A stretch of 64,000 nucleotides of DNA from Candidatus Heimdallarchaeota archaeon (GTDB taxonomy: Archaea > Asgardarchaeota > Heimdallarchaeia > Heimdallarchaeales > Kariarchaeaceae): contig JASBSB010000001.1 in assembly GCA_030149205.1 (NCBI GenBank), forward strand, positions 134,357 through 198,356, given 5' to 3'. The translations under genes were made by a program, and so were the position numbers. Of this stretch, positions 1 through 42,430 are shown piece after piece (the first letter of the stretch is position 1; each line of letters begins with the position of its first letter). The notes below the pieces were generated by a model that was not told where the DNA came from, made no database searches, and saw only the letters and a list, made by a program, of their open reading frames with translations.

Positions 1-114
1 TCAATAGTAGATTCTTATCAACAAAAAGCTGCGAAATTACCACTCCCTAAAATTCTGCTCAAGTTAATCAGTTTACTGATAGAGGGAGTACAAGCTAAGA
101 TAAAGATTCTATAA
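1..114 (+). CDS. 3' end of an ORF entering from upstream of the window (unknown product)
   Basis: Frame 1 is open from base 1 to TAA at 112-114 (...KLPLPKILLKLISLLIEGVQAKIKIL*). Only 37 codons are visible and no motif is recognised. Confidence 0.2.
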   Translation, partial: SIVDSYQQKAAKLPLPKILLKLISLLIEGVQAKIKIL

Positions 115-552
115 ATTATAATTGTAAAATCATATTTGCTCTAATGTCGATTTTTGATTTTAAATTTGTTCATGAAAGGTATTGTCCATTGTAACCAGAA
201 CATCCCAATGAATTTGGGATTAAAATGAAAGAAATAGTTATTGATCGTAAAAAGAGAAGAGAAGAGTTGAAAACCAATATGGGTAGTTATCTAATTTAGT
301 GGTTTAGGTAGTTTACTTTACTAAATTAATACAATATTACAGAAGATTACAAAGATTAGATGTTTTAATTGCAAATATCATAAAAAACATTTCATCTTAG
401 TAAATTTTTTAGTTTGTACTAAAGCAGAGTATTATTTCACAAAAAACAATCTAAGTTTGTTAGAACAGAAGATAAACAACCATTTTAAGGAAAAATATAT
501 GCAAAAAGAAATTTAAGTTCGGGTTAATTCTTTTCAATGACCTAATATAATT

Positions 553-1386
553 TCAAGTGTCAAACTCTAATAAATCTATAAAGTCACACAATTTACAAAA
601 TTGACATACCTTAGATGTGAAATCTTGTTCAGGTAACTTTTTTATATTATTTAATTGTTGTGATTTTTCGTATAAATTAGAAATCTCTTGCAATAATCCC
701 CCAATCGTTTTCTGGTCAATTTTTTGAATTTGATCAAATTTTGGTTTACTATACCAAAGTTCAAGATTTATTTGCTGGTCTGGAAAAGAACTGTATAATA
801 TTTCACCATAAATTTTTATTTGATTCTCATCTTCTAGTTTTGGAGTACCCGTTTTGTATTCAATTATTCGTAATCCACCTGTTTCAGAAAATGCTACCAA
901 GTCAATCTTACCACGTATTTGAAAATTGTGGTTAATTCTATTGATAACAGTAAATTCATCTTGAATTACAAGTGATGTTATCTCATTATTATTAATTGTA
1001 ACCAAACTTTCTGCCATAAGAGCAAGATTATGAAGTTGACTTGTAATTATATCAAAACTATTTGAAAATTCTTGGCGATGGTATTTCCATGGACCTGTAT
1101 TATTCATCCATATTTTTTTTATTGAATCTAATTCAATTTCCATTGATAATAATATTGCATCCTTTATATTCTTACTTTTACGGTGATAAAAAAATTCAAC
1201 ATTACTAAAATTTCTTAGGAATACTCTCTGTAAAATTAAATGTAAAAAATTTCCCGCGTATACAAATTTGTTAGGTGTAAATGGTATTTTTATCTCCTGT
1301 TGAGCATATAATACCTGTAACATTGTTCTTCTTTTACAATTAAATTCATTTACACTTGTAACTCCTAATCTTATTGATTTATTCAT
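553..1386 (-). CDS. Cas4-like PD-(D/E)xK nuclease with predicted 4-Cys (Fe-S) cluster; last gene of the Argonaute operon
   Basis: Motif order matches the Cas4/AddB family. N-terminal Cys (SVNEFNCKRR), GNFLH, GKIDLV...RIIEYKTG (D...ExK core), QIKIY (QxxxY) and C-terminal CQFCKLC. The ATG overlaps the upstream gene's stop by 8 nt (1379-1386). Confidence 0.8.
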   Translation of the reverse strand: MNKSIRLGVTSVNEFNCKRRTMLQVLYAQQEIKIPFTPNKFVYAGNFLHLILQRVFLRNFSNVEFFYHRKSKNIKDAILLSMEIELDSIKKIWMNNTGPWKYHRQEFSNSFDIITSQLHNLALMAESLVTINNNEITSLVIQDEFTVINRINHNFQIRGKIDLVAFSETGGLRIIEYKTGTPKLEDENQIKIYGEILYSSFPDQQINLELWYSKPKFDQIQKIDQKTIGGLLQEISNLYEKSQQLNNIKKLPEQDFTSKVCQFCKLCDFIDLLEFDT

Positions 1387-3148
1387 TTAATGTCCTCCTA
1401 TTTTCCAATAAAAATTCTGAAGAATAGTGCATAGCTAATCCAAGGATAAATGGAAATTTCGGTTTTGATAAACTGTATGGGTTTATGAAGGTTTGATAAA
1501 ATACATCTTGAAGTATTTCTTGGATATCATGCAATCCTTTGATTTTTTCAATAAATAATGGTTTGGGAATACCTTCAAATAAATCATTAGGATATCCATT
1601 TGTCATAATTAATGACTTGTTATCATTAATACTAACTGATAAGCCATCAATTGCTTTAGAAGTATTTTCGATCTGTCCATAAAGGATTGAGTGTGATGAA
1701 TTAACTAAAACTAAACAAAAATTATAATGGGAAATTTTATCAATTAAAGGTAATAACTGTCTGTCTGAAATTTGAATTAAGAAGTGGTCTGAATCACTAA
1801 AATTAATCAATTTTTGTAAGAAATCATTAATTTTAACTTTTTCATCGATATTTTTGTCTCTATCATTATAAAAAATATCATGTGAAATGTTAATATTTCC
1901 CTTATTAGAACTAACACCTGATAATATCATCCATTCTCCTGCATAATATGGTGTTATATGAAGAGCGATTATATTCTGATGATACTTCATTGATACATTT
2001 TGATATAATTTTCGAGTGTATCTAAATCTAATATTCAACCAAATTAGTTTTACAATTTTTCCCCAATCATCTTCTAATATTGTTGAAAATTTAATGATTT
2101 TATTTGGAATTACAATTTTTTCTTTAGTTTTATTGTATACATATCCTGAACCCTTTATTCTATCGTCGATACATATTATAGCTGCATCTGCCTCAAATTT
2201 ATGAAGCTTGGAGACATAATAGCTTTGAATTGTAATATTTAATCCTGTAACTTCTGCAAAATATGAAATAAAATTCTGAATCTTAATGGGGGTATTATCT
2301 GTCACAGATTTATCAATTAAAAATAATATATTGCTAATAAATGGATCAAATGAAATGTTATCCTCTAAAATATCTACTAATGGAGTAGTGTTTAAAGTTT
2401 CAATAGTGTTTGAATTGATTTTTATCGACGGACTATTTATTAAATCCCCTTTCAGATTCTCAATAACAGATAATCTTACATTTCCGATTTGATTTGTATT
2501 TATTACTTTGATTATTTTAAGGAATCTTTGTTCCACTGATTCAAAATTTCGATGTAATTGTAATACTTCTTTTTCTATTACACCAGGTATTAATTTATTA
2601 GATGTTAAGTTAAATGAATTTTCAGATATTTCATGTCTGGGATCATAAAAAACCATAACCTTATCATCTCGCATCTCATGGCATTCAAACCTTTCAGCTT
2701 GAAAAATCGAATACGTGAATGTTTCATTAAACTGTTCAACAGTTTTTTCTACGATAGGATTTATTCTTTGACTAGCTACTCCTTTAGATTTTCCAATAAA
2801 TGACAGTACCTCACTGGGTCTATAATAACCTTTGTTTGAAAATGTAATATATAAGGCTGTCAATACGAATATGTCAAGATTTTGTATTTCTTTCTTTTCA
2901 TTAATCTCTGTAGTACAGATTGAAACAGGGATTGTAGCAATCTCCAAATGTGAAGGTGGTTTTTGTGCGAAAAGGTAATATGAATCCTTTACATATATAA
3001 TTGTAAATGGAACATCTGATAAAAAATCACCATTTTTTAATGCAAAGGTCAGAAAGCTAAATTCATAGTTGTACTGCATGGAAACTTTGTACATTTTTAA
3101 TACAGCTGTATCAATTTGTGCTATCCAACCAAGTATTTTGCATATCAT
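1379..3148 (-). CDS. Second, highly diverged Argonaute-like protein (MID-PIWI-like C-terminal half; N-terminal ~300 aa unassigned)
   Basis: By eye, aa ~325-592 follow the MID->PIWI motif order. YVYNKTKEKIVIPNKII is MID-like; KLIWLNIRFRY sits at the aKlGG helix position; HFLIQISDRQL at the hRDG strand position. GIPKPLFIEKI is GtprP-like and the C-terminal KPKFPFILGLAMHYS sits at the lPxPxxYA position. The ATG at 3148-3146 overlaps the pAgo TGA at 3147-3145 (ATGA). The track's GTG start at 3157 is the alternative. Confidence 0.55.
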   Translation of the reverse strand: MICKILGWIAQIDTAVLKMYKVSMQYNYEFSFLTFALKNGDFLSDVPFTIIYVKDSYYLFAQKPPSHLEIATIPVSICTTEINEKKEIQNLDIFVLTALYITFSNKGYYRPSEVLSFIGKSKGVASQRINPIVEKTVEQFNETFTYSIFQAERFECHEMRDDKVMVFYDPRHEISENSFNLTSNKLIPGVIEKEVLQLHRNFESVEQRFLKIIKVINTNQIGNVRLSVIENLKGDLINSPSIKINSNTIETLNTTPLVDILEDNISFDPFISNILFLIDKSVTDNTPIKIQNFISYFAEVTGLNITIQSYYVSKLHKFEADAAIICIDDRIKGSGYVYNKTKEKIVIPNKIIKFSTILEDDWGKIVKLIWLNIRFRYTRKLYQNVSMKYHQNIIALHITPYYAGEWMILSGVSSNKGNINISHDIFYNDRDKNIDEKVKINDFLQKLINFSDSDHFLIQISDRQLLPLIDKISHYNFCLVLVNSSHSILYGQIENTSKAIDGLSVSINDNKSLIMTNGYPNDLFEGIPKPLFIEKIKGLHDIQEILQDVFYQTFINPYSLSKPKFPFILGLAMHYSSEFLLENRRTLNE

Positions 3149-5346
3149 ATAAACCACGGCTTTTTAAAATGGAAATTCGCCATATCTTTAGGAATTTTGC
3201 CCATACCTCTACTTGATGAATGAATTGGAACTGGGAGCTTAGTTTCAATTCTATCCCATCCAGAATAACAATGGCATAAATCAAAAATCTCATAAAGAAG
3301 TTTTTCAAATCTCTCCTCATCACATTTAATATTTCTTAATACAATTGGATTTTGAGTCCCAACATTTCCTTGTGTTGAAATTAAACCAACTTCAGTCTTA
3401 GATATCCAATAAAAAGTCCCAATATGTGGCCGAAATATTCTATTTTTTTCATTCTTTGAATAAATACGAAGTGGAGACGAAGAAATTACCTCAACAATTG
3501 AATGTTTTAAATTAAGAATATTAAGGCTATGTTCAATATCTTTTAATTCTCTATCATAAAATTTTCCATTCTTTATTAAAACTACTTCATCATTATTTTT
3601 AGTGAGTAACTTAAAAGCACTTTCAAAATTTTGTTGACGATTTTCGACGTTATCAGAAATGTAGTATCCTCCACTAAATCTACCCGAATTATAATATGAA
3701 TTTAGTAACCCCCGATATTTAGTTGCATCTAGTGAGATGTTTTGAGATTGCAAACCAATATATTTTACAAAACCATTTTCATTAACATTCAGTAACCATG
3801 AATGTAGACCTAACTTTGCAATTATACCCAAAAATATATTCCGAAAATACCCATTTTGTCTTGATTCAATTTTATCCTTCAGAACATTAAAATTAATTCC
3901 CTGATGAGGATATTCATTTTTTATTAATTCACCAGATACTAATTCTTTGAATTCACTATCTACACTATCATTATCAGAATGAACCACTATGATACAATTG
4001 TTGTTATTTACAAATTTATCCATATATTCTGATAAGTCTCCCTTTTTTTCGAGAAGTTTTATTTCATCAAACTCAATTTCTGTACTAAGAAATTGTTGAA
4101 GAATGATTATTTCTTTTGTTTCTTTTAGAAATGGCTTTTTTATTAATCCTAATTGATATTCATTATACTCTCGATATAATAAAATCGATATTTTTAACTT
4201 TTCGGGACCCTTATCAAATATCCCATATTTTTGAATTTCTAATGCTGGGTAATCAGTCCTATGTGAATTACCAATAATGTAATTATTCAAATCTAATAGT
4301 CCAGAGTTACATGAGTTCCAAGATTGAAAGTTTCTAATTGGATTTAGAGTTATTGAACCCACGGTTAAATTACCTATAAAACGCATATAATTCTGTGATC
4401 GTTTAAATCTAATCGGAGGGTCAGGCCTAATTTGTTTCATCAGGGCACCTCTATCATGATAATCCAAATGTGAAAATGTTGGTAATTCTCGAATTCTTTC
4501 TAAAGGGTATGAATAATACTCATCATTATCATTTTTATAGAATGATAACGCAATAGGTGGTTCATCTTGTATAAATTCACCAAGCACGGGTGCTCTAGGA
4601 CAAATGAATTTTTGTTTGTGAAACTCAATTATATCTAAATTATCAATTATTACCTCTGAAGGTTTCTTATTTACAATTTTTTTCAATTTCACAGTCTTCC
4701 CAGTTCCAGCATATCTACAGTTTGAGAAAGGATCCTGTTTTTCTGGACATTGAATAATTGGACAAGTATCTACATAATAATTTTTCGGATTTATTTCTAT
4801 ACTAGAATATGAAAGTTTCTCTCTCAATGATACGGATGAATGAAATTTATATTTGAGATCAACTATTACTCCAACTTCACCATTTTTAAGCAAAATTGGA
4901 GCATATTGAAATCCTGGGAAAACATCAATTTTTCCAAAACCCTCGATGGTCTCAGGGCTAGAAACCTCAAATATTGAATTGTAAGTTTCTTGTATCTTCC
5001 ATAATTTATTACTATGTCGTAAATTGACAGCAATAGCATCTCCAATAATTCTTTTCAATAGATCTAAATCATCATCATTTTGGGCTGAAACTAATCTACT
5101 AGTAGGAGGAAATAAATTTACTGCCAAATCTTTTTCGAAATCATCTTCAAGTAATTCGGTTGAAATTATCTTATCTCCAAATTGAATTATAATTTTACGT
5201 CGATTATCTGGAACTTTCCTAAGATTAAGTAATACATCACCAAGTTTTCGAAAGTTTATTTCTTCTTTTTTCCTATATTCAAAGACTGTAACTTTATCTT
5301 TGAATGGTGTTTTTTCAAATTTTAAAATATTAGTTATTATTTCCAT
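3145..5346 (-). CDS. Long prokaryotic Argonaute (N-PAZ-MID-PIWI), predicted catalytically inactive
   Basis: N-terminal TNILKF; PAZ-like block DVFPGFQYAPILLKNGEVGVIVDLKYKF. The MID/PIWI junction reads YPHQGINFNVLKD...FRNIFLGIIAKLGLHSWLL. The PIWI C-terminus reads GTQNPIVL...ETKLPVPIHSS. The hRDG strand reads IKNG (nt 3565-3576), so the third catalytic Asp is Asn. Confidence 0.85.
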   Translation of the reverse strand: MEIITNILKFEKTPFKDKVTVFEYRKKEEINFRKLGDVLLNLRKVPDNRRKIIIQFGDKIISTELLEDDFEKDLAVNLFPPTSRLVSAQNDDDLDLLKRIIGDAIAVNLRHSNKLWKIQETYNSIFEVSSPETIEGFGKIDVFPGFQYAPILLKNGEVGVIVDLKYKFHSSVSLREKLSYSSIEINPKNYYVDTCPIIQCPEKQDPFSNCRYAGTGKTVKLKKIVNKKPSEVIIDNLDIIEFHKQKFICPRAPVLGEFIQDEPPIALSFYKNDNDEYYSYPLERIRELPTFSHLDYHDRGALMKQIRPDPPIRFKRSQNYMRFIGNLTVGSITLNPIRNFQSWNSCNSGLLDLNNYIIGNSHRTDYPALEIQKYGIFDKGPEKLKISILLYREYNEYQLGLIKKPFLKETKEIIILQQFLSTEIEFDEIKLLEKKGDLSEYMDKFVNNNNCIIVVHSDNDSVDSEFKELVSGELIKNEYPHQGINFNVLKDKIESRQNGYFRNIFLGIIAKLGLHSWLLNVNENGFVKYIGLQSQNISLDATKYRGLLNSYYNSGRFSGGYYISDNVENRQQNFESAFKLLTKNNDEVVLIKNGKFYDRELKDIEHSLNILNLKHSIVEVISSSPLRIYSKNEKNRIFRPHIGTFYWISKTEVGLISTQGNVGTQNPIVLRNIKCDEERFEKLLYEIFDLCHCYSGWDRIETKLPVPIHSSSRGMGKIPKDMANFHFKKPWFI

Positions 5347-5348
5347 AT

Positions 5349-6035
5349 TTATCTCTCTTTGTTTTTAAGTAACTCAAATGAACTTATCACCGCAAGGTCT
5401 GTGTTAACCGTTTTTGTTAGTATTTTCTTACAAGCTGAATGCATTATGAAAAATCCTGTACCTAACGCAGTTTTCATTAACTCGTTTTTTGCGGATTGCA
5501 ATAAAATATCATTAACTATTATTTCAGGATGAACTGATGTTGAAAAATATACTTGGATTGTAAATGAACTCGTATCATCCAAAAACAAAAAAGAATTTAT
5601 TCCATCTTTTTTCCAATTACACTTCAGTGAAAAAAGATCTTCAATTCTTGAATTAAACCCGTCTAATCTATTAAATTCTTCGCTAATTTCTTTGATAGGT
5701 AGTATAATTGAAGATTTTAACAAATAATTCCCCATAACTCTCAGGTGCCAATTAGAATTAAATTTATCTACGTCTAATACTTGTATAGTTTGATTGGATT
5801 GATACAATCCTGTATCTTCTTCATAAGAAAGCAGATTATCTTTAGTTAATTGGCTAAGTATCATTTCAACTTCTACATTTGGTATATGATCAAAATATAG
5901 ATTACTTCTCCCAGAACTCATCCAAATATGTTTCACTATATTTGATTTTTTTGCACTACCATAATCTCGCAGGAAATCAAGAATTAATTTTTTAATTGCT
6001 TTCTCCATTGAATCTTTAGGTTTCATATCAATCAC
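5349..6035 (-). CDS. Winged-helix (wHTH)-like N-terminal domain protein with uncharacterised C-terminal domain; Argonaute-operon gene 2
   Basis: The N-terminal ~75 aa (EKAIKKLILDFLRDYGSAKKSNIVKHI...ILSQLTKDNLLSYEEDTGLY) has a wHTH-like helix/wing pattern. The GTG at 6035 overlaps the upstream TGA (GTGA); an ATG at 6026 is the alternative. Only 2 nt separate its stop from the pAgo ATG. Confidence 0.5.
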   Translation of the reverse strand: MIDMKPKDSMEKAIKKLILDFLRDYGSAKKSNIVKHIWMSSGRSNLYFDHIPNVEVEMILSQLTKDNLLSYEEDTGLYQSNQTIQVLDVDKFNSNWHLRVMGNYLLKSSIILPIKEISEEFNRLDGFNSRIEDLFSLKCNWKKDGINSFLFLDDTSSFTIQVYFSTSVHPEIIVNDILLQSAKNELMKTALGTGFFIMHSACKKILTKTVNTDLAVISSFELLKNKER

Positions 6036-7072
6036 CTGACTATCTCCTTAATCTTTGACTTTAGTTCTTCAGAATTATCTACAATTACAACATTCTTAAA
6101 ATTGTAGCGTATTTCATCATAATATTGATTAGAATTGTTTAAAATAATAAAATGGGTAATATCAATAAACGAAGTAAAAGCAAAATTAATTTCATCTACC
6201 TCTTCAGAAGGTAAATGCATATCTACAATCCATAATCCAATTTTTAGGTTATTCAATTCAATGTAAATGGGAATTGTTATACTCTCATTCTGACTATTTG
6301 TAATCTTTATTTCCTTACGGATAAAAATTGGATTGAATTCTTGAATTACATTGAGGAAGCTTTGACCAATTTTCTCCTGTAAATACTTGAAATCATCACT
6401 GAAAGCCGGAATTCCAGATATTTCCTCAAAATCTTTTGCTGTGTATTTTGTTCTCATTTGAGAGCTTGATTTTGTAATTATTTGTTCTATTATATCTTGA
6501 AATATTTGTTTAGGATTACGAATTAGAATATTATATTTTGATAGCTCTTCAAGACATTTACTCTTAATATTATCGAATGGACTTGATGGATGATTGGGGG
6601 CAAAATAATTCCAAACAAATTCTATTTTTTTGAATACTTCAATTTTTTTCTGATCTGTGAATTTTCCTTTGAAAAGAGAATTTATTCTACCTTTATCAGC
6701 ATTTGAAATTTCTAAATTGTTCTGAAGGTTTTGTTGAATTTGCAGTAGTTCAGTAATTTCTGCATTCCAACCCGATTGAGTTGTAAATCGAAATTTAATT
6801 TCTTTTCCAGATAAATTTTTTTCATCTTCCTGTATGAACTTTGTTAAAATTGGTATCAAACTTGATTTATTCCAGACACTATGTTCTTTTTTCTTTACCT
6901 GTTCAAATATAAAGTACCCAGTATATTCTATGTTAATATCTTCTAATTCATCATCCTTTGATTCAAATTCAATTGATAAAATCTGATCTCCTTTAATGAA
7001 TTCAATGACTCTTAGTACTCCAACCATATTTTGGTAATTAATACCATAGTTTGTATCAATTCCACTTGGCAA
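6032..7072 (-). CDS. DUF4297 / Cap4-type dsDNA-endonuclease-like (PD-(D/E)xK fold) N-terminal domain protein; first gene of the Argonaute operon
   Basis: The N-terminus (YGINYQNMVGVLRVIEF...IEFESKDDELEDINIEY...FEQVKKK) matches the G-x-x-YQ ... E..D.D ... QxK pattern of DUF4297 nuclease domains. The C-terminal ~220 aa are unassigned. A TTG start at 7072 is needed to include the YQ motif. Confidence 0.6.
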   Translation of the reverse strand: MPSGIDTNYGINYQNMVGVLRVIEFIKGDQILSIEFESKDDELEDINIEYTGYFIFEQVKKKEHSVWNKSSLIPILTKFIQEDEKNLSGKEIKFRFTTQSGWNAEITELLQIQQNLQNNLEISNADKGRINSLFKGKFTDQKKIEVFKKIEFVWNYFAPNHPSSPFDNIKSKCLEELSKYNILIRNPKQIFQDIIEQIITKSSSQMRTKYTAKDFEEISGIPAFSDDFKYLQEKIGQSFLNVIQEFNPIFIRKEIKITNSQNESITIPIYIELNNLKIGLWIVDMHLPSEEVDEINFAFTSFIDITHFIILNNSNQYYDEIRYNFKNVVIVDNSEELKSKIKEIVR

Positions 7073-7091
7073 TATTTTAAATCTAGTTTTC

Positions 7092-7102
7092 TTTATAATA
7101 AT
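7092..7102 (-). promoter_or_regulatory. TATA-box-like element upstream of the Argonaute operon
   Basis: The minus strand reads attattataaa about 25 nt upstream of the TTG start at 7072, a spacing compatible with a leaderless or short-leader archaeal transcript. TATA-like strings are common in this AT-rich DNA. Confidence 0.3.
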
Positions 7103-7454
7103 TCAGAGATATTGTAATAATCAAAATGAAAGTTTTAAAAATTTAAATATACAATATGTGATATCAAAAAAATTTTATTGCAAAGACTTAAAATAAATGA
7201 GAACTCGAAGCTGGATAAAGACCTATAACCGTGATTTCCTTGAAATATCTCGGATATAATCAAGAAAATAAATTAGTAAATCTAAATCTTGATTGAAATA
7301 TTCTTCGTCTACTAATTATTCTTATTATATTGTTATCTTATAAGAGTTGGAAGTACACAGATATTCGACTTGCTAAGTCAGTATACAATATATATTCAAC
7401 CAGTATCTTTCAACTATGACTACCAATTCCAAAAAAAAAATGAAATTGAATGAA

Positions 7455-8597
7455 TTAATCCAGGTGTTTATTGTTTTTCTTAATATGCTGCAATGTATCT
7501 TCATTGTGAGCTGCCAAATACTCAAAAGAATTGTCATACATAGTTTGATTTAATCTATGAATAATGTCACTTTTTACGAAAATACTATATTCAACAGGAG
7601 TTTTGTTATCAATTGTAGATAAATTATTTGTTATGTATTTCATAAAATTTTCCAGATTTAACAATCCTATCGCAATTGTGGGATTAATTGGTATGTAATA
7701 TTCTAACATAACTGATACTCCATTTACTATTAACTCTGCTATAATCAATGGATTGTCTGAAGTAATTAATTCTACAGGGTGGTCTTGAGGATTTAGTCCA
7801 GATAGATTAATTATGATGATCGGCCTGAGTTCAGTATGTTTTAGTGGTTTATCAACTGTTTCATCAGGCAATTTTTGTAAAACTTCTCTGATTTTATTTT
7901 CAATTTCGATTTGACTATCTTTATGATCTAAAGATTTCTTTATTCCGATACTAATATTTTTACTTATTAAGGATATCATACCTTGTAAGTCGTTTTTTAA
8001 AAAATACCCCTGTGCTTTTTGTAAAAACACCTCGTCATATTTAATATTACTTTGATATAGAATCTCCTGTGTTTCAGTGCTAATAAAACTAAAATCCAAT
8101 ATCTTACTAAATTTCATGTAATTTCTAAATGAAGGTGTTCTAAACGTTAGATGATTAATAAAATCACATAAAATTTCGAAATTTGATTGCAAATGCATAG
8201 CATCTATGAAAGTCTCCGCAAATTTTTTTATATCTAATGATTTTTTGAATATGTTATCTCTATTACTAGGGTTGTAAATTTTTATTTTCTCAGTTTGAAA
8301 ATTTAATTTTTCTAATCCAGTAAAGAACTTAGCGACTTTATCCTCAGCTTCACTCATCAAATCGTCAATCAGTTCCTCTAAAAACCTTGGAGAATAAAAA
8401 CTTTGATTAATCTTTTTTTTGTCAATATCCCCAGTCTTTTTGTTCAACCTAAATACTCTTTTCTTTTTGTTATCTTTTTCAAAATCCTCCTCAATAACAA
8501 AATTTCGTAGAAACCACTGAGGAATATAATGTTGTTTTCTGCCTGACATGAACATAACTGTGGAATAATTGTATATTATAGTATTTGAACGAGACAT
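7455..8597 (-). CDS. DUF4238-like protein (function unknown)
   Basis: The N-terminal motif GRKQHYIPQWFLRNF matches the H-Y-[IV]-P-Q-x-[FY]-L-x-x-F signature of DUF4238. The rest is unassigned. It lies in the same low-GC block as the Argonaute operon. Confidence 0.55.
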   Translation of the reverse strand: MSRSNTIIYNYSTVMFMSGRKQHYIPQWFLRNFVIEEDFEKDNKKKRVFRLNKKTGDIDKKKINQSFYSPRFLEELIDDLMSEAEDKVAKFFTGLEKLNFQTEKIKIYNPSNRDNIFKKSLDIKKFAETFIDAMHLQSNFEILCDFINHLTFRTPSFRNYMKFSKILDFSFISTETQEILYQSNIKYDEVFLQKAQGYFLKNDLQGMISLISKNISIGIKKSLDHKDSQIEIENKIREVLQKLPDETVDKPLKHTELRPIIIINLSGLNPQDHPVELITSDNPLIIAELIVNGVSVMLEYYIPINPTIAIGLLNLENFMKYITNNLSTIDNKTPVEYSIFVKSDIIHRLNQTMYDNSFEYLAAHNEDTLQHIKKNNKHLD

Positions 8598-35747: not shown

Positions 35748-38036
35748 TTATCCAGAAGAACCCATGATCAACGTTTGGAGTGTATCAATTAATATTTCAA
35801 ATGGGAAGGGTTCTGTCTTAACCCTGTCTCTCGTGGATTGTTCCATGTTTGCGAACATTGTCCCAATTGAATATACCTGTTGGGCTGTTCCTTCTGCATC
35901 AGGAGCTCCACTGGCACCTACTTGATCTGCACTAGAGTAAGCCAAGTCTTTGGCACTAGACCAGTTTGATATGGCTTCAGAATAATTTTTGTTAAGAGTT
36001 GCAACAGTTGCATTTAGTGCCTTTTCAATTGCTTCGATAAAGCTAATTGCACCAGTTAAGTTGCCCTTTAAGACTTTGAAAAAATCCCAGTTCACAAGAG
36101 AACCTCTAATTATTATGGGTGCTTGATTCTTTAACACTGCATCCAAGGCTACCAGAATATCTGAGAGTGCGGATTTAAAGGTATCGAGTTCCATTATGTC
36201 ATAAGCCATAATCCCCGGCTTTCCAGAACCCTTTCCTAAAGCGGAGCTCTCTATCAATACTGCAATTTTGTTAATGAAGGTGAACTGGATAAGAGCAGAC
36301 CTAAGCTGAATCTCAGCGATTAACCCCCTTAGGAGAGCATTTTTTGCAATTGGTTTTAATACGGTCTCAATTGTCTCCTGTAATGGCCCGGTGTTGTCCT
36401 TGGTACAATAGGAAATTGCATCAAAAATTAAAAAGTAAGATTTAGCCCTCATCATTAATTCTTTAACCGGGTTAGAACCAAATTCATTTTCTGCGATTGA
36501 TTGGATTTGGATTGCTTCAGTTGCTTCATTAATGGCATATAATTCTGCGACTGCCTGATCAGTGAATTCGCTTTGGTTAGGAAGTAGGAGAAATGAAACT
36601 AGAAGTAGATCAAGATGTCTGTTTATGTGAGTTAGTTGGCTGGGAGGTAACCCCTGTTTGAGAGCTTGCATCCACTGTGTTGTTAAGTGTTGAAAGGCCA
36701 CCTTAAGCCTCTCCTCCAAGGAATTGAACCGACTATTTATGAATTCCAAGTCTTTTTTACTGTTCTCTCCGTTTTCTTCATCTGCGATATGAGACACATA
36801 CGCAAATATATTATCATAAATCAAGGGAAAAGTCGATATAAACTGCAAATCTCCTTTTCCAAGCATTTCTTGTATGAGATTCTCTGAGTCTTTGATTTGT
36901 TTTTTGATACTCTTGAAATCCTTTTTCTGTATTAATTCCTCGATCCCTTTATATTTAATGTTAAGCTCGCAGATGGATTTGGAAAGGAAAAACAACTCAC
37001 GCTCTTCTTCAAGTGTATATTCAGTCCATCCATCAATGACCTCAAGTAATGCAGCTGGATCGTCCTCAGAAACGTTTATTAGGTTAAATGCCATTTGGAA
37101 GTAACTTCCAGCAGATTCTAAGTCTTTTGACGAAAGGGCATTAATTGCTAGAGTCTTGTAATGTTGAGCTAAATACGCGTTTGCAAGAAGTTCGGCACGT
37201 ACATGGTTAGCATCATAGACATCCAATATCTCTTTAGCCAAATCAGATGTAGTTTTCTCCAAGTTGTCTTTCATTGACTCCATATGGTTTAATGCATGAG
37301 ATACCATGGAATGCATTACGATTGGGTCTTGCCACCACCAACTAGTCAGACCAGAGGATAAACGTTTAAGCACGACAGTTAACAAGAAGTTGAATTGACC
37401 CATGTCATAAGTGCTTAGGAGTTGAGCTTTCTCTTCATTGAATGTTTTTGGGTCATAAATTTCACCTAAATAATTTAACCGTTTTTGGATTTGGTATAAC
37501 CTCAACAGTTCAATTAAGGAGGATAGTGCTTCTGGAGTGAACGAGGGTTGATCCTTAAAAGCTAATAATGTTAATTCATCTAACTTTAGTTTAGTATTAA
37601 CATATCCCTCTGTTTTTTTGTAAAGATTTGACTCTTTTAGAATTCCACTTCTCATCATAGTGGCATATGCATATCCCATTACATTTATATCAAACCAAAA
37701 ATCGGTAATAGATTGAATTCTTTTGAAATCTTCAGGTTTAACTTTTTCAGGAGACCTTTTCAATTCATCAATTATTCTATTGTATAATGATTCTGTTAAA
37801 TCCATTACAGATAACAGGTGTTCTACCACAGTCTGAGAAAAGTCATTCCAATCTCTTGCAATCTCACTTGTTTCATCTATATCAAGATAATTCTTGTATA
37901 ATAATTTATTTGCGTTAATCAATGATTCAAATTTCGAAAAAACAAGTCTTTCATCTAATTGAAACTTTAAATCCATCACTAGAATAATAGGATACTCTTT
38001 TTTTAATGTTTGGTAGTTTCTAATGTAATTCTGCAA
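35748..38036 (-). CDS. Large hypothetical all-alpha protein (762 aa)
   Basis: Uninterrupted ORF with helical-repeat-like composition. No recognisable motif. Confidence 0.5.
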   Translation of the reverse strand: MQNYIRNYQTLKKEYPIILVMDLKFQLDERLVFSKFESLINANKLLYKNYLDIDETSEIARDWNDFSQTVVEHLLSVMDLTESLYNRIIDELKRSPEKVKPEDFKRIQSITDFWFDINVMGYAYATMMRSGILKESNLYKKTEGYVNTKLKLDELTLLAFKDQPSFTPEALSSLIELLRLYQIQKRLNYLGEIYDPKTFNEEKAQLLSTYDMGQFNFLLTVVLKRLSSGLTSWWWQDPIVMHSMVSHALNHMESMKDNLEKTTSDLAKEILDVYDANHVRAELLANAYLAQHYKTLAINALSSKDLESAGSYFQMAFNLINVSEDDPAALLEVIDGWTEYTLEEERELFFLSKSICELNIKYKGIEELIQKKDFKSIKKQIKDSENLIQEMLGKGDLQFISTFPLIYDNIFAYVSHIADEENGENSKKDLEFINSRFNSLEERLKVAFQHLTTQWMQALKQGLPPSQLTHINRHLDLLLVSFLLLPNQSEFTDQAVAELYAINEATEAIQIQSIAENEFGSNPVKELMMRAKSYFLIFDAISYCTKDNTGPLQETIETVLKPIAKNALLRGLIAEIQLRSALIQFTFINKIAVLIESSALGKGSGKPGIMAYDIMELDTFKSALSDILVALDAVLKNQAPIIIRGSLVNWDFFKVLKGNLTGAISFIEAIEKALNATVATLNKNYSEAISNWSSAKDLAYSSADQVGASGAPDAEGTAQQVYSIGTMFANMEQSTRDRVKTEPFPFEILIDTLQTLIMGSSG

Positions 38037-38060: not shown

Positions 38061-38360
38061 TTATTTCTTGAATTTAACTAATTCTTCTTGTGGGTCTATT
38101 TGAGCAACGTATTGCCCATCTTTTAGCCATTGAATTGGGACAATTTGAAACCTTCCATTATTGAATTGCCGTCTAATTCCAATAGGTAGTACTCTTGCAT
38201 TCAACTCTTCAGTGGCGAGTTTGATGGGGGGCAAACTGATATTTTCCATCTGCATGAGTACAGGAGCTCCATAACTAATTTGTAGCGCTCTTGCTCCAAC
38301 AATTCTGGCTCTTTCATACCTAGTAAGATATGGTGGTCCAACCTCAACCTTATCAGACAA
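38061..38360 (-). CDS. rpoK: DNA-directed RNA polymerase subunit K (Rpo6 / RPB6 homologue)
   Basis: [24 protein letters not shown] ... PIKLATEEL ... LPIGIRR. TTG start. Confidence 0.9.
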
Positions 38361-38643: not shown

Positions 38644-40047
38644 ATGTCTAGGGTAATTTCTCATCTACTAAGAGATATATCCAGCTTAACAAGATACCAT
38701 CAGGATGCATCTTCAAGGTTATGCTTTCTACTTGGTGCAAGAGAAGCAATAAGATTAATGATGGCTGTTAAAGATGCAGCAGAAAATCAATTTCTTATAT
38801 TAAATGTTCCACCCAAAGAAAAAAACATGGAGAGAGTAATGGAGAAGGTCATAAAGGAAATCAAGATTCAAGGTTATGAGTTTGAATTGAGAGAAGACTT
38901 AGGCAATGTTATAAGCATAAAGACCCGAGATCGAAAACTTGAACTTGAAAGAAGAATTGAAGAGGCCGAAAACGAAGAAGAGAAGAGTGAGATCCTTAAC
39001 AGGTTTGATATTGAATATGTTAAGCAGAAGGGAATTCCCACAGCAGTTGTTCGAAGGGAAGCATCAATTGCTGCCTCATTAGGCGCCTCTATTGTCTCTG
39101 GAGATATTCTACAGGATTCAAATATTCAACCACAACAGGAAGTTGTGATTCAAAACATCTACTATGACATTGTTGCTTATGGTATAGCTGAGCTAAGCAG
39201 TGAAGAGATAAAAAGATCTCCAAGAAGAATTGCCATCAGAACACTAGAAGGAAGGTTTGACACCTTTAATGTTCATCATCAAAAAAGGTTCAGGAATGGT
39301 CTTTACTCCGTCACAACTTTACCTAGAATTTTAGGTTTAAATTTGCTCAAATTTAAAAAATCTACTCCTGCAAACGTCTTGGTTATCGCAGAGGATAAAG
39401 GTGAAATTGCAGTTGAGCTTTTTAAGAAAGTACCTGAAGAATCACAAATTGCTATCGTCATCAATAATGACGCCCACCGAAGAGATGTGGTGGAGACAAT
39501 AGAACGACTGGGATTTGAAGAAAGCAACTTTAAATTCATCATTGATGGGATCGATAGATACGCTAAAAGCAGACCAAGGCGAAAATTTACACACTTCTTT
39601 ATTGAGTTTCCTTCATCAAACACGGGTATCCGACCTAACCCCTTTGTTGATTTAGAAGAAAAGAATATCATCAGCTATGCCAGAGGACAATTTCAGGGTA
39701 TACGTGCATTATCATTGCTTGGAACAAACGAATCACAGGTTGCTTATGTTTCCCATTCGATAGATCCAAGTGAAAATGAAGATATTGTGGTTCAATCGTT
39801 CAGGCAGGGTTACTTTTCACCTTTGGTTTTAACTGATGAACTAAGAAAAACCTATCCAATAATAATGCGAGCACTTCCAGAAATTCCCACAATTTCTCAA
39901 GGAGGAACAATTGATGGTTCCAGATTAAAGCAAGAAGAAATGTTTGCCTCCTGCTGGTTAGCAGTGGATCCGGAGATCCATAAATCAGATGCAGGGTTTG
40001 TTGCTTACTTTGAATTACTCCTTAAACCGAGTGGAAGAAGAAGATGA
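38644..40047 (+). CDS. Nop2/Sun (RsmB/Trm4)-like protein with PUA-like insert, predicted catalytically dead
   Basis: Colinear with m5C RNA methyltransferase motifs but degenerate. The SAM loop reads VIAEDKGEI (canonical DxCAAPGGK). Motif IV reads IEFPSSNTG (canonical DAPCSGTG). Motif VI reads YVSHSIDPSENE (canonical YSTCSxxxEENE). Confidence 0.5.
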   Translation: MSRVISHLLRDISSLTRYHQDASSRLCFLLGAREAIRLMMAVKDAAENQFLILNVPPKEKNMERVMEKVIKEIKIQGYEFELREDLGNVISIKTRDRKLELERRIEEAENEEEKSEILNRFDIEYVKQKGIPTAVVRREASIAASLGASIVSGDILQDSNIQPQQEVVIQNIYYDIVAYGIAELSSEEIKRSPRRIAIRTLEGRFDTFNVHHQKRFRNGLYSVTTLPRILGLNLLKFKKSTPANVLVIAEDKGEIAVELFKKVPEESQIAIVINNDAHRRDVVETIERLGFEESNFKFIIDGIDRYAKSRPRRKFTHFFIEFPSSNTGIRPNPFVDLEEKNIISYARGQFQGIRALSLLGTNESQVAYVSHSIDPSENEDIVVQSFRQGYFSPLVLTDELRKTYPIIMRALPEIPTISQGGTIDGSRLKQEEMFASCWLAVDPEIHKSDAGFVAYFELLLKPSGRRR

Positions 40048-40102: not shown

Positions 40103-40819
40103 ATGACATTATCTTTAGTGAACGAGGAAGATTCAAACGATGTCATTTCTCCAATATTAAAATCATTCCTTGCAAAAGATTTGGCAGAGGATATCGGAGA
40201 AACACTCCTAGACATGATAAAGTTTAATGAGGTTTCCTTGTATAAGATTTCAAATGATAAGAAATTAATTGGATTCCTGATCCTAAATGAACAGATGGAT
40301 TTTGATGATGATGATAAACCGTTTAAACTATTAGTCATAGATGAAATTTGGGTCTTACCTGATGTTGACACAGACGATTCTTCTCTTCAAGAGATACCTG
40401 GAGAGGTCCTTAAAATTGCAGAAACTAAAAAAATTAAATTTATTGAGATTGTTGTTAACGAAGGAAACATGTGGTTGAATAGATTCTTAGAAGAACAAGG
40501 ATTCTTAATAAGGGAAATACAAGGAAGAAAAATTGTGCCACATCCAGATTATGTAGCCGACATCATGTCACTTATTGAGAGCACATTACCTGATGTGGAT
40601 AAACTTGTTGAACTTTCATTTTCAAAAGATGATGAGAACATCAACGAATTTGGCATCAGTACAGATGAGATAATTGAGTACCGTAATGAGGGATGGATAC
40701 CTGAATTAGTCAATGTTTATTACGAGGTCAATTCAAAGGATGCAAGTAAAATAATTTCTGAGACCAGTCAAATTATTAATTGGGATGAGATTCAGGTAGT
40801 ATTTAAGAATATACAATAG
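40103..40819 (+). CDS. Hypothetical protein, GNAT-acetyltransferase-like N-terminal half (tentative)
   Basis: IGFLILNEQ...LLVIDEIWVLPD...IKFIEIVVNEGNMWLNRFLEEQGF has a GNAT-like strand/helix order. The start is moved to the ATG at 40103, because the track start at 39989 overlaps the previous gene. Confidence 0.4.
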   Translation: MTLSLVNEEDSNDVISPILKSFLAKDLAEDIGETLLDMIKFNEVSLYKISNDKKLIGFLILNEQMDFDDDDKPFKLLVIDEIWVLPDVDTDDSSLQEIPGEVLKIAETKKIKFIEIVVNEGNMWLNRFLEEQGFLIREIQGRKIVPHPDYVADIMSLIESTLPDVDKLVELSFSKDDENINEFGISTDEIIEYRNEGWIPELVNVYYEVNSKDASKIISETSQIINWDEIQVVFKNIQ

Positions 40820-40828
40820 GTGAGCTAA

Positions 40829-42430
40829 TTGGAAACTGATGAAAAGGTCACACATTGGACCGATAAGATAATTGATGAAGCTACGACAAAATTTGGTGGG
40901 AAGCATGTGATTATGGGAGGGTGGTCTCCCTCCGGAATTTTTCATATTGGAAATTCTAGAGAGATAATCACAGCAAATGCAATTAATAGAAAATTAAAGG
41001 ATTTAGGAATAACCTCAAATTTTGTTTTTGTAATTGACGATTTTGATGGACTAGAAAAAATTCCATCAACCCTAAAAAAATATAAAGGAAGCTTAAAAGA
41101 ATATATTGGTCATCCCTTATGTAGGGTTCCTGATCCAACTAAGCAATTTGCCTCATATAGTGAATTGTTTGCAAGTAGTCTCAAAGCAGCATGTAAAGAA
41201 TGGAACATTGATGTAGAGTTTTTAAATGCCTCTGACCTTTACAAGGAAGGAAAATATGATAAATTTTACAGTCTATATTTACAGAACTACCAGAAAGTTC
41301 AGGAGATCTTAAAGGATGTATCCGGGTCTGAATTATCCTCTTTTCTGATTGTCATTTGTCCGAACTGTGGTTCAAATAAGTCAACTGAGGTTCTCAAGAT
41401 GGATGATACCAAGATAAGTATAAAATGCCAAACATCAGGTCAATACAAAGGGTGTAACACCACGAGTGAAGTTTCCGTTGAGAGTCACGAGTGGAAATTG
41501 AAATGGAGATTAGATTGGCCTGCTAGACAAACATTTTGTGGTGTGACTATTGAACCTGCAGGTAAAGACCACTCTGTAGAAGGTGGATCCATAGATACCT
41601 CAATAGCCATCCATCGAGAAATATTAAACCATCAACCACCAGTCATGCCAAGGTATGGCTTCATTACTATTAACGGGAAAAAAATGAGTGGTAGCTCAGG
41701 GTTAGGATTACCAGTGGAAAAATTAAGTGAGATTGTTGATCCTAGCAGTTATTTATACCTGGTCTACAAAACTAACTTGACTAGAGATGTTGATTTTGAT
41801 TATAAGAGCATGAACTTACTAAATCTGATTGATGAATACATAGGTATCTGGAGGGATGAACTCTTTGGGGACAAATATGAAGGAACTACTCAACAGGTTA
41901 CTAAACTAAAGGCTGCGTTTTTGTTAACTAAAACCCCTTACCATGAGAAAAATAACCCATTATACATTAAAATGACTGAATTGTTGTTGTTGTACCAAAT
42001 TAGCTTGGAAAATTGGGATAGACTTCTAGATAAGCTAAAAAGCTTAGGAAAGTTAGAAGAGGATATTTCTCTGGAAGAGCTTTCTCTAAGACTTAAAAGA
42101 GCAATGAATTGGTTAAATACATATGGGCCAGATAACCTTAAATTTAAAATAAATGAAATTCCACCTGAAGGGGTCAACAAATATTGGACTAAGACTTACA
42201 AAGACATCTGGTTAGAGACTCTTAATACCCTTGATAAGAACAGTACCAAGGATGATATCTCAACTATATTGAGAGCAAAAGCAAACGAAAAACAGGTCCA
42301 ACCAAAGGAGTTGTTCAAACCCTTCTATCAACTGATTATCAGTAAAGACCGTGGCCCTAATGCTTCTCAATTGATTGTGTCATTGGGTTCTGAAACAGTC
42401 CTTAAGTTAATTTCTAAAATCGAAGTCTAA
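40829..42430 (+). CDS. lysK: Lysine--tRNA ligase, class I
   Basis: SPSGIFHIGNSREI (HIGH-type), DDFDGLEKIP, a Zn-binding insert CPNCG...C...C, and KMSGSSG (KMSKS-type). TTG start. Confidence 0.9.
   Translation: METDEKVTHWTDKIIDEATTKFGGKHVIMGGWSPSGIFHIGNSREIITANAINRKLKDLGITSNFVFVIDDFDGLEKIPSTLKKYKGSLKEYIGHPLCRVPDPTKQFASYSELFASSLKAACKEWNIDVEFLNASDLYKEGKYDKFYSLYLQNYQKVQEILKDVSGSELSSFLIVICPNCGSNKSTEVLKMDDTKISIKCQTSGQYKGCNTTSEVSVESHEWKLKWRLDWPARQTFCGVTIEPAGKDHSVEGGSIDTSIAIHREILNHQPPVMPRYGFITINGKKMSGSSGLGLPVEKLSEIVDPSSYLYLVYKTNLTRDVDFDYKSMNLLNLIDEYIGIWRDELFGDKYEGTTQQVTKLKAAFLLTKTPYHEKNNPLYIKMTELLLLYQISLENWDRLLDKLKSLGKLEEDISLEELSLRLKRAMNWLNTYGPDNLKFKINEIPPEGVNKYWTKTYKDIWLETLNTLDKNSTKDDISTILRAKANEKQVQPKELFKPFYQLIISKDRGPNASQLIVSLGSETVLKLISKIEV

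Follow-up and report, generated by a model that had tools for sequence, protein, structure and literature searches.

A conserved NSun6-like protein without catalytic cysteines, and its GNAT-fold neighbour, in heimdallarchaeal genomes

Nucleotides 38644-40047, on the forward strand of a 64-kb stretch of DNA from a Candidatus Heimdallarchaeota archaeon (contig JASBSB010000001.1; the whole 64,000-nt stretch that was analysed is called the window), encode a 467-aa protein that is built like the tRNA methyltransferase NSun6 but carries other residues at the catalytic and cofactor-binding positions. The open reading frame (ORF) is real and these are its exact coordinates, with an ATG start and a span that includes the stop codon. 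Its residues indicate that the protein should be unable to bind S-adenosylmethionine (SAM) or to make 5-methylcytosine (m5C), and it can be expected to bind RNA. The explanation favoured here, with a probability put slightly above even, is that the protein descends from NSun6, is no longer catalytic, binds the acceptor end of an RNA and acts together with a partner of the GNAT fold encoded next to it.

Clear evidence for the parentage of the protein comes from comparison with solved structures. A search of all Protein Data Bank (PDB) sequences with phmmer returned a single significant match, Pyrococcus horikoshii PH1991 (5zvd; E=5.5e-7, residues 130-388), which is labelled a 'hypothetical nucleolar protein' in its entry and is the characterised archaeal tRNA m5C72 methyltransferase NSun6 (PMC6393295), here PhNSun6. 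A hidden Markov model (HMM) built from 86 relatives that have both catalytic cysteines, the active-NSun6 HMM, recognises the protein with E=3.1e-29 and 96 bits; it finds no second match within the window, and no intact NSUN paralogue either there or in 334 kb of related loci. The AlphaFold2 (AF2) model, made from the family alignment, is confident (mean per-residue confidence, or pLDDT, of 90.2; pTM 0.90), and its top match in Foldseek is again PhNSun6 (5zvd_A, E=1.3e-28, TM 0.85 on the target), followed by human NSUN6 in all its crystal forms at about 1e-24, with Nop2 in pre-60S particles further down at about 1e-15 and aTrm4, RsmB and RsmF lower still. The seven strands of the Rossmann-like core are intact in this model, and a PUA domain lies between an N-terminal RRM-like part and the core, which is the NSun6 architecture. 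The parent family is thus NSun6, of the PUA-bearing PH1991 type, and not Trm4 or Nop2.

Curated profiles alone give a fainter signal. Pfam places a PUA domain (PF01472) at residues 133-200 (E=1.4e-5; 25.4 bits, the gathering score being 24.8), bearing out the PUA-like segment noticed when the DNA was read from its letters without database searches (the sequence-only reading). The RsmB/F methyltransferase family (PF01189) matches over profile positions 34-153 of 199 at 16.2 bits (E=0.0087), below its gathering score of 27, and an NCBIfam scan gave no family match. By its sequence, then, the protein is a NOL1/NOP2/Sun homologue that falls outside the curated PF01189 threshold, and the homology on which the sequence-only reading rested is carried by the active-NSun6 HMM and the PDB search. 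That reading had called the protein colinear with Trm4/Nop2-like enzymes: the kinship with NOL1/NOP2/Sun proteins stands, while the parent proved to be NSun6 by phmmer, HMM and Foldseek alike. Pfam, NCBIfam and Foldseek against the PDB showed no resemblance to other enzyme families.

The gene can be divided as follows.

38644-38928, forward strand: N-terminal helical and ferredoxin-like (RRM-like) part, residues 1-95, as seen in the modelled secondary structure; it runs colinear with the extension and RRM at the N-terminus of active NSun6 relatives.

38929-39033, forward strand: family-specific charged helical insertion, residues 96-130, which opens with a conserved D-R-K, is a gap in active NSun6 and is the least conserved part of the family.

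39034-39258, forward strand: PUA domain, residues 131-205, with an invariant EEIKRSPGR motif; the PF01472 match, and among the most conserved regions.

39376-39411, forward strand: degenerate motif I, V245-A256, VLVIAEDKGEIA, in place of D-x-C/A-A-A-P-G-G-K; D251, G253 and E254 are invariant or nearly so and the catalytic Lys is Ile255.

39448-39480, forward strand: degenerate motif II, I269-R279, with the SAM-ribose Asp replaced by Ile273 and the Arg/Lys by His278 (His in 34 of 35 members).

39604-39618, forward strand: degenerate motif IV, E321-F-P-S324-S, in place of D-A/P-P-C-S/T and followed by a conserved T-G-x-R-P-N-P; Ser in 33 of 35 members.

39745-39780, forward strand: degenerate motif VI, Y368-V-S-H371-S-I-D-P-S-E-N-E, with the nucleophilic Cys replaced by an invariant His (35 of 35) and the downstream D-P-x-E-N-E retained.

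39820-39954, forward strand: family-specific insertion, residues 393-437, with an invariant L-P-E-I-P motif, known from alignments and modelled with lower pLDDT (69-72).

39994-40002, forward strand: G451-F452-V453, whose Phe aligns with human NSun6 (hNSun6) F458 and is retained in 32 of 35 members; the role of this Phe is taken from PMC5499824.

A 122-aa antisense ORF also lies inside the gene, at 39303-39671 on the reverse strand, and has tblastn matches in 11 related loci; it is a shadow of the conserved sense-strand coding, with no evidence of a gene.

The loss of the functional motifs is plain in the HMMER alignment to PhNSun6. Motif I, DMAAAPGGK in the archaeal enzyme, is VIAEDKGEI in the window protein, and motif IV, LLDAPCT, is FIEFPSS. 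A third segment pairs YSTCTLSYEENE with YVSHSIDPSENE, in which motif VI reads Y-S-T-C-T-L-S-Y-E-E-N-E in PhNSun6 and Y-V-S-H-S-I-D-P-S-E-N-E here. The Gly-rich SAM loop has become E-D-K-G-E, only Gly253 being retained of the A-P-G-G-K loop; the motif IV Cys, which serves in product release, is S324, and the motif VI Cys, the nucleophile, is H371. The three substitutions proposed in the sequence-only reading (DxCAAPGGK to VIAEDKGEI, D-A-P-C-S to E-F-P-S-S and T-C-S to S-H-S) are all reproduced in this way, and the entry segment that it singled out, NGLYSVTTLP, does align with PhNSun6 KGYFYPQGLP. One assignment fell: its 'A-x-D' strand (IAIVINND) does not supply the motif II Asp, a position occupied by Ile273.

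The pocket itself tells the same story. Thirteen residues of PhNSun6 that line the site of S-adenosylhomocysteine (SAH) are listed in PMC6393295, and they were mapped with an offset, the chain numbering of 5zvd being the native numbering minus 4. Along the glycine loop, M208 corresponds to I248 of the window protein, A209 to A249, A211 to D251, G213 to G253, G214 to E254 and K215 to I255. Beyond it D233 corresponds to I273, R238 to H278, D260 to D304, D277 to E321, P279 to P323, Y304 to G348 and F308 to G352.

The same replacements run through the family. Among 132 full-length relatives that were aligned, 72 are active NSun6-like proteins and 35 are members of the window protein's own family. 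The motif I Lys is present in 72/72 of the former, whereas the family has I, V, T or M and no K; the motif II acidic residue is D or E in 72/72 against T, I, L, V or A (none acidic); and the motif II Arg/Lys, kept in 69/72, is His in 34/35 family members. The motif IV Asp (72/72) has become Glu in 35/35, the motif IV Cys (72/72) has become Ser in 33/35, with a relic Cys in P0012 and P0035, and the motif VI Cys (72/72) is His in 35/35.

What such changes do to an NSun6 enzyme is known from human NSUN6, in which K248, D323, C326 and C373 are strictly conserved throughout RNA m5C methyltransferases (PMC5499824). The K248A, D323A and C373A mutants are inactive, C326S has about 4% of its activity left, D266A and K271A (at the positions of PhNSun6 D233 and R238) do not bind SAM, and F458 stacks on the target cytosine (PMC5499824). 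Three of the four strictly conserved residues are replaced by chemically unrelated ones in the window protein and the fourth is changed from Asp to Glu, while the two SAM-ribose ligands are Ile and His. At every site that marks a catalytic member (the motif I Lys loop, the motif II pair, D-x-P-C in motif IV and the Cys of motif VI) the window protein departs from the active enzymes, and its only cysteines, C27 and C437, are both distant from the cleft. Intact Cys and SAM residues hidden by shifted motifs were looked for and not seen: three independent alignments (HMMER to 5zvd, MAFFT of 18 and MAFFT of 132 sequences) agree on which residues fall in the catalytic columns, and this explanation is rejected. 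With other residues at the catalytic and cofactor positions, its motifs in register and both cysteines far from the cleft, the window protein does not appear credible as a SAM-dependent m5C methyltransferase.

The gene has nonetheless been kept. A homologue search collected 35 clusters at 35-72% identity, full length or shortened only by contig ends and free of frameshifts, and all named members come from metagenome-assembled genomes (MAGs) of Heimdallarchaeota or Kariarchaeaceae. A scan of one genome per GTDB species found 14 loci with intact ORFs, all in heimdall- or kari-archaeal MAGs. Orthologue comparisons gave 0.10-0.30 nonsynonymous differences per site (pN), with synonymous differences (pS) saturated at 0.73-0.89, and the ratio of nonsynonymous to synonymous rates (dN/dS) is about 0.1 for the one pair open to correction. 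The Cys-less gene is therefore under strong purifying selection in these genomes, and the view that it is a pseudo-enzyme retained rather than decaying is borne out. The sequence-only reading had proposed such a pseudo-enzyme, kept for RNA binding or regulation, and the computational evidence agrees with it throughout.

Selection has not acted evenly along the protein. Conservation in the family is highest in the PUA domain, in the regions of motifs IV and VI and in the helix that follows motif IV, and 17 Arg or Lys residues of the window protein stand in columns with a conservation of 90% or more. In the active enzymes the motif I region is conserved at 1.32 times the mean (second only to the motif IV region at 1.39 times); in the family it has dropped to 0.99 times the mean. 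D251, G253, E254, H278, E321 and H371, all replacement residues, are invariant or nearly so across the 35 clusters. Taken together, the conservation pattern suggests that the RNA-facing half has been preserved and the cofactor half freed from its old constraint, despite the newly invariant D251, G253, E254 and H278.

Three neighbouring genes have a bearing on what the protein might do.

40103-40819, forward strand: GNAT-fold partner gene of 238 aa, with a C-terminal alpha/beta domain of about 90 aa and an eroded acetyl-CoA loop, recognised by synteny, profile and AF2/Foldseek.

40829-42430, forward strand: class I lysyl-tRNA synthetase (LysRS), PF01921 with E=8.9e-84, 9 nt after the partner gene.

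38061-38360, reverse strand: RNA polymerase subunit Rpo6/RpoK, the divergent upstream neighbour, PF01192 with E=8.2e-9.

The partner gene probably starts at 40103 and not at 39989, the start in the ORF list, which overlaps the upstream gene, because the orthologues do not support the earlier position. An ORF of 230-237 aa follows the Cys-less gene by about 50-110 nt on its 3' side in 8 related loci, and L006 and L007 carry a corresponding ORF at another place in the locus (in L006 beyond an insertion of 8 kb), so that synteny extends to 10 loci overall. Class I LysRS is the next gene after the partner in 7 of the 8 related loci, 0-35 nt away or slightly overlapping. A Pfam scan of the 238-aa product gave no match, GNAT families included. 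A profile of 9 partner orthologues did match solved GNAT acetyltransferases in the PDB (E=3.6e-4 to 4e-3), and the AF2 model (pLDDT 79.8) has GNAT matches in Foldseek over its N-terminal ~145 residues, at about 1e-6 to 1e-5 with a best E of 2.6e-6, the remaining ~90 residues forming an extra alpha/beta domain. On profile and model, the product of 40103-40819 is predicted to have a GNAT fold. The canonical acetyl-CoA pyrophosphate loop, Q/R-x-x-G-x-G/A after strand beta4, is absent from it (L-P-D-V-D-T-D-D-S-S-L-Q) and the loop is variable and unconserved among the orthologues of the window lineage.

The break in synteny at L006 has a likely source. In this Heimdall MAG about 8 kb separate the NSun6-like gene from the GNAT-fold partner (L006 3500-11470), and two ORFs in the insert, 5911-6390 and 6451-6837, have N-termini that resemble the core-binding domains of tyrosine recombinases or integrases. 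The insert is probably a mobile element that has split the pair.

Proteins of this kind are not confined to the window family. A search with the family profile of 1.84 billion representative proteins returned only 138 matches, among them Cys-less NSun6-like groups outside the core family: P0037, a divergent Kariarchaeaceae member; P0041/P0044, with T-H-S at motif VI as in the window family; P0040/P0048/P0053, with T-N-S (the TNS clade); P0062/P0063/P0086/P0106; and P0068. These clades lack the motif VI Cys and, except for P0062, the motif IV Cys, and they share the architecture of the window family. Genes typical of Asgard archaea, such as those for Arf-family GTPases and ESCRT-II EAP30, occur on their contigs, and the Cys-less genes often adjoin those for RpoK, RpoN, RpoL or ribosomal proteins. 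Within the P0062/P0086 clade (T/P/F/E-S at motif VI, with the motif IV Cys kept in P0062), L023 8001-9263 adjoins ribosomal proteins S8 and L6, and L025 8001-9224 stands beside RpoN, with RpoL, CDC48 and an ESCRT-II EAP30 gene close by. The nearest active relatives are found in MAGs of Asgardarchaeia, Odinarchaeia and Hodarchaeota.

The catalytic residues may have been lost once or several times. A neighbour-joining tree places all Cys-less sequences in one clade beside an active Asgard sequence, but the bootstrap support for that clade, 62%, drops to 0% once 59 motif columns are removed. Firmer groups are the Heimdall family with P0035 and P0037 (100%), that group with P0041/P0044 (82-96%), the TNS clade (100%) and the P0062 clade (100%). 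Scores against the active-NSun6 HMM fall along a gradient, from 263-349 bits in the TNS clade through 207-230 in the P0062 clade to 95-144 in the window family, which by this measure looks like the most eroded of the Cys-less clades. The TNS clade may still bind SAM, because it has kept the G-x-G loop and the motif II acidic residue.

The TNS clade also supplied a link between the two halves of the gene pair. In hhalign, the partner profile matched a 245-aa and a 235-aa protein encoded two genes from the Cys-less P0048 and P0040, with probabilities of 94.5% and 89.4%, over about 200 columns that include a C-terminal W-D-E motif. A profile search with the partner led to a very uniform family of 235-aa proteins annotated 'GNAT family N-acetyltransferase' (GNAT235), positive for PF00583 and present in Asgard, Heimdall and Thor MAGs. 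Four members were then chosen blindly (P0216, P0224, P0203 and P0254), and at every locus so reached GNAT235 on the forward strand faces RNase HII on the reverse strand, followed on that strand by an NSun6-like gene of 401-409 aa. The NSun6-like genes translated at these loci (L028-L031) are Cys-less, with T-N/E-S at motif VI, and GNAT235 stands beside RNase HII and an NSun6-like gene, in a constant order of three genes, at every locus looked at (L020, L022 and L028-L033). The combination of GNAT235 and a Cys-less NSun6-like protein has thus been maintained in two clades, and it is the strongest functional clue available.

An HMM built from GNAT235 alone recognises the partners in L003, L004, L005, L008 and L010 (E=5e-13 to 6e-9) and does not recognise the most divergent ones, those of the window, L001, L002 and L011. 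In the main GNAT235 family the acetyl-CoA loop reads R-E-S-E-I-A. The window partner looks like a fast-evolving member of GNAT235, and both proteins of the pair look more degenerate in this lineage than elsewhere. At loci that combine GNAT235, RNase HII and the Cys-less gene, such as L029 6001-8676, genes for archaeosine tRNA-guanine transglycosylase and for tetrahydromethanopterin-related functions lie adjacent.

A different GNAT protein accompanies the P0041/P0044 subclade. Its neighbour is of the RimI/Ard1 type (TIGR01575, E=1e-21 to 1e-23), at L018 6261-6767 on the reverse strand and L015 9373-9852 on the forward strand, and the same loci carry an Lhr-type helicase, an Arf-family GTPase and RpoK. 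Homology between the window partner and these RimI-like proteins is rejected (hhalign probability 0.6%), the two sharing only a fold, and the neighbours in L012 and a 278-aa GNAT protein of L023 are likewise rejected as partner homologues. The recurrence of a GNAT gene beside P0041/P0044 may be coincidence or convergence.

Further out, an RpoK-like ORF also lies upstream in L001 and L002, and RpoK is near P0041 in L018. Upstream of RpoK in the window is a 762-aa ORF, at 35748-38036 on the reverse strand, that has no Pfam match and holds the same relative position in 7 related loci at 33-44% identity. Across the window, ARAGORN found no tRNA genes and no Rfam family reached its gathering threshold. 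The first ~8 kb (positions 1-8000) have a G+C content of 0.27-0.29, against 0.34-0.39 elsewhere in the window, and could be an island or reflect a different class of genes.

A possible mode of action can be sketched from what is known of NSun6, whose PUA domain and linkers take hold of the tRNA at its 3'-CCA end and whose motif IV/VI cleft receives C72 (PMC5499824). The window protein would dock on RNA in the same manner, its PUA domain and linkers holding a 3'-CCA-type end, and its motif IV/VI cleft would hold a nucleotide, with Glu321 and Phe452 in the cytosine-contacting positions. It would then form a complex with the GNAT-fold partner and serve in it as the RNA-recognition or adaptor subunit, in a setting that may be related to translation, since the downstream neighbour is class I LysRS and the upstream one RpoK. 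The acetyl-CoA loop of the partner is eroded too in this lineage, so the pair may act through binding and not through catalysis.

Several observations weigh against such an adaptor. The LysRS linkage is confined to the core Heimdall clade; the P0041/P0044 subclade has no GNAT235 neighbour; the 35%-identity subclade of L012-L014 has neither a GNAT235 nor a RimI-like GNAT neighbour; and, GNAT genes being common, part of the neighbourhood signal could be chance. The PhNSun6 residues that contact CCA and N73 (N98, Q107, Y112, E174 and S190) are R137, L146, V151, H212 and R228 in the window protein, and the identities of these contacts also differ between human and archaeal NSun6. Moreover, an invariant D251, E254, H278, E321 and H371 would be unusual for a purely dead pocket, and could point to a new ligand or chemistry. 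From these residues springs the main rival to the dead-pocket reading: the SAM/cytosine pocket would have been rebuilt as a His/Glu/Asp site for another ligand or a metal, and would carry out a non-methyl chemistry on cytosine or modified cytosine in RNA, or simply recognise it, possibly with the GNAT-fold partner. The lack of drift in the replacement residues over 35 clusters fits this well, as do the preserved cytosine-contacting positions (Asp changed to Glu321, Phe452 kept) and the place of the motif IV and VI regions among the most conserved parts of the protein. Even so a re-tooled enzyme is thought unlikely: the constellation is not common to the other Cys-less clades, which have Asn, Glu, Thr, Pro, Phe or Ser at motif VI and begin motif IV with Asn, Ser or His, and nothing in Pfam, NCBIfam or Foldseek ties the pocket to another enzyme family.

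The genomic company of the Cys-less genes invites another interpretation, one that gives up tRNA acceptor ends altogether. Nop2 has a methylation-independent role in pre-60S particles, and the NSun6 scaffold might similarly have become a protein- or rRNA-binding module, making the window protein a structural or assembly factor in the biogenesis of ribosomes or RNA polymerase. RpoK lies near the Cys-less genes of the window and L018, RpoN and RpoL near that of L025 and ribosomal proteins S8 and L6 near that of L023, and after NSun6 the best structural match is Nop2 in pre-60S particles. In archaea, however, housekeeping genes lie close together, which makes neighbourhood weak evidence, and with NSun6 tRNA enzymes as the closest relatives in sequence and fold and a conserved PUA domain, an assembly role is also held improbable. 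Far less probable is a surviving m5C or other SAM-dependent methyltransferase with shifted or substituted motifs. The intact Rossmann-like fold, Gly253, an Asp304 kept in most members and the trace activity of hNSun6 C326S (PMC5499824) would all be in keeping with it, but all 35 members have His in the nucleophile column, C27 and C437 lie far from the cleft, and the motif I Lys, the motif II Asp and its Lys/Arg are all gone, each single mutation of which abolishes activity or SAM binding in hNSun6 (PMC5499824), in an alignment made unambiguous by flanking conserved residues in register. Catalytic motif loss is the only thing that would suggest a decaying pseudogene or mis-called ORF, an idea of negligible likelihood that is ruled out by intact full-length orthologues in at least 14 genomes and 35 clusters, pN far below pS, a confident AF2 model and conserved gene order.

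A bolder version of the adaptor reading, itself of low probability, joins these strands into a conserved Asgard two-protein module. The Cys-less NSun6-like protein would present an RNA nucleotide or 3' acceptor end, and some other modification, for example acylation of cytidine or of aminoacyl-tRNA, would be carried out or sensed either by the GNAT partner or by the rebuilt His/Glu pocket; the Heimdall/Kari lineage of the window, in which the two genes and class I LysRS form one operon-like unit, would be the most derived form. Under the favoured reading, a non-catalytic NSun6 descendant that works with its GNAT-fold neighbour, the archaeal lineage that stands nearest to eukaryotes has conserved an NSun6 fossil, with genomic links to a GNAT-fold protein and, in the window clade, to LysRS. 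Should the pair bind tRNA acceptor ends, Asgard archaea would possess a tRNA-handling factor of a new kind, and with it a clean natural experiment in the repurposing of an m5C methyltransferase pocket. No mention of NSun6-like proteins in Asgard archaea or of Cys-less NSUN proteins turned up in the searched literature, and a pseudoenzyme family with a conserved GNAT-fold partner is apparently undescribed. Databases call these proteins 'hypothetical', 'PUA domain-containing' or '16S rRNA (cytosine967-C5)-methyltransferase', and the last of these labels is almost certainly wrong.

Set beside archaeal NSun6 (PH1991, 5zvd) and human NSUN6, the window protein has the same domain order and fold. It also keeps their flanking motifs, G-x-x-x-x-[Q/T]-x-L-P, R-L-G, G-x-R-P, D-P-x-E-N-E and G-F-[FV]-[IV]-A, and the cytosine-stacking Phe. 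It differs in having other residues in place of the A-P-G-G-K loop with its motif I Lys, of the Asp and Lys/Arg that bind the SAM ribose and of both catalytic cysteines, and in its two insertions (96-130 and 393-437), its sub-threshold PF01189 score and its conserved GNAT-fold neighbour. The TNS clade, too, has its link to GNAT235, yet it is much closer to the active enzymes.

Dead paralogues of RNA-modifying enzymes often prove to be essential specificity or scaffold subunits, as with METTL14, Trm6 and ADAT3, inactive proteins kept as RNA-binding or scaffold partners of METTL3, Trm61 and ADAT2, respectively. The window protein resembles them as an inactive RNA-modification fold kept under selection. 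Those proteins, however, pair with an active paralogue of the same fold, whereas the conserved neighbour here is of the GNAT fold and no active NSUN paralogue was found nearby. Another parallel is offered by NAT10/Kre33 with THUMPD1/Tan1, in which a GNAT-fold acetyltransferase uses a separate, non-catalytic tRNA-binding adaptor. This serves as a working analogy for GNAT235 and the Cys-less NSun6-like proteins, with no sequence relationship between the two systems: the adaptor in the window is a PUA-methyltransferase fossil and not a THUMP protein, and its GNAT partner has no recognisable acetyl-CoA loop. By that analogy, the window protein may act much as adaptors of the THUMPD1/Tan1 type do for their acetyltransferases.

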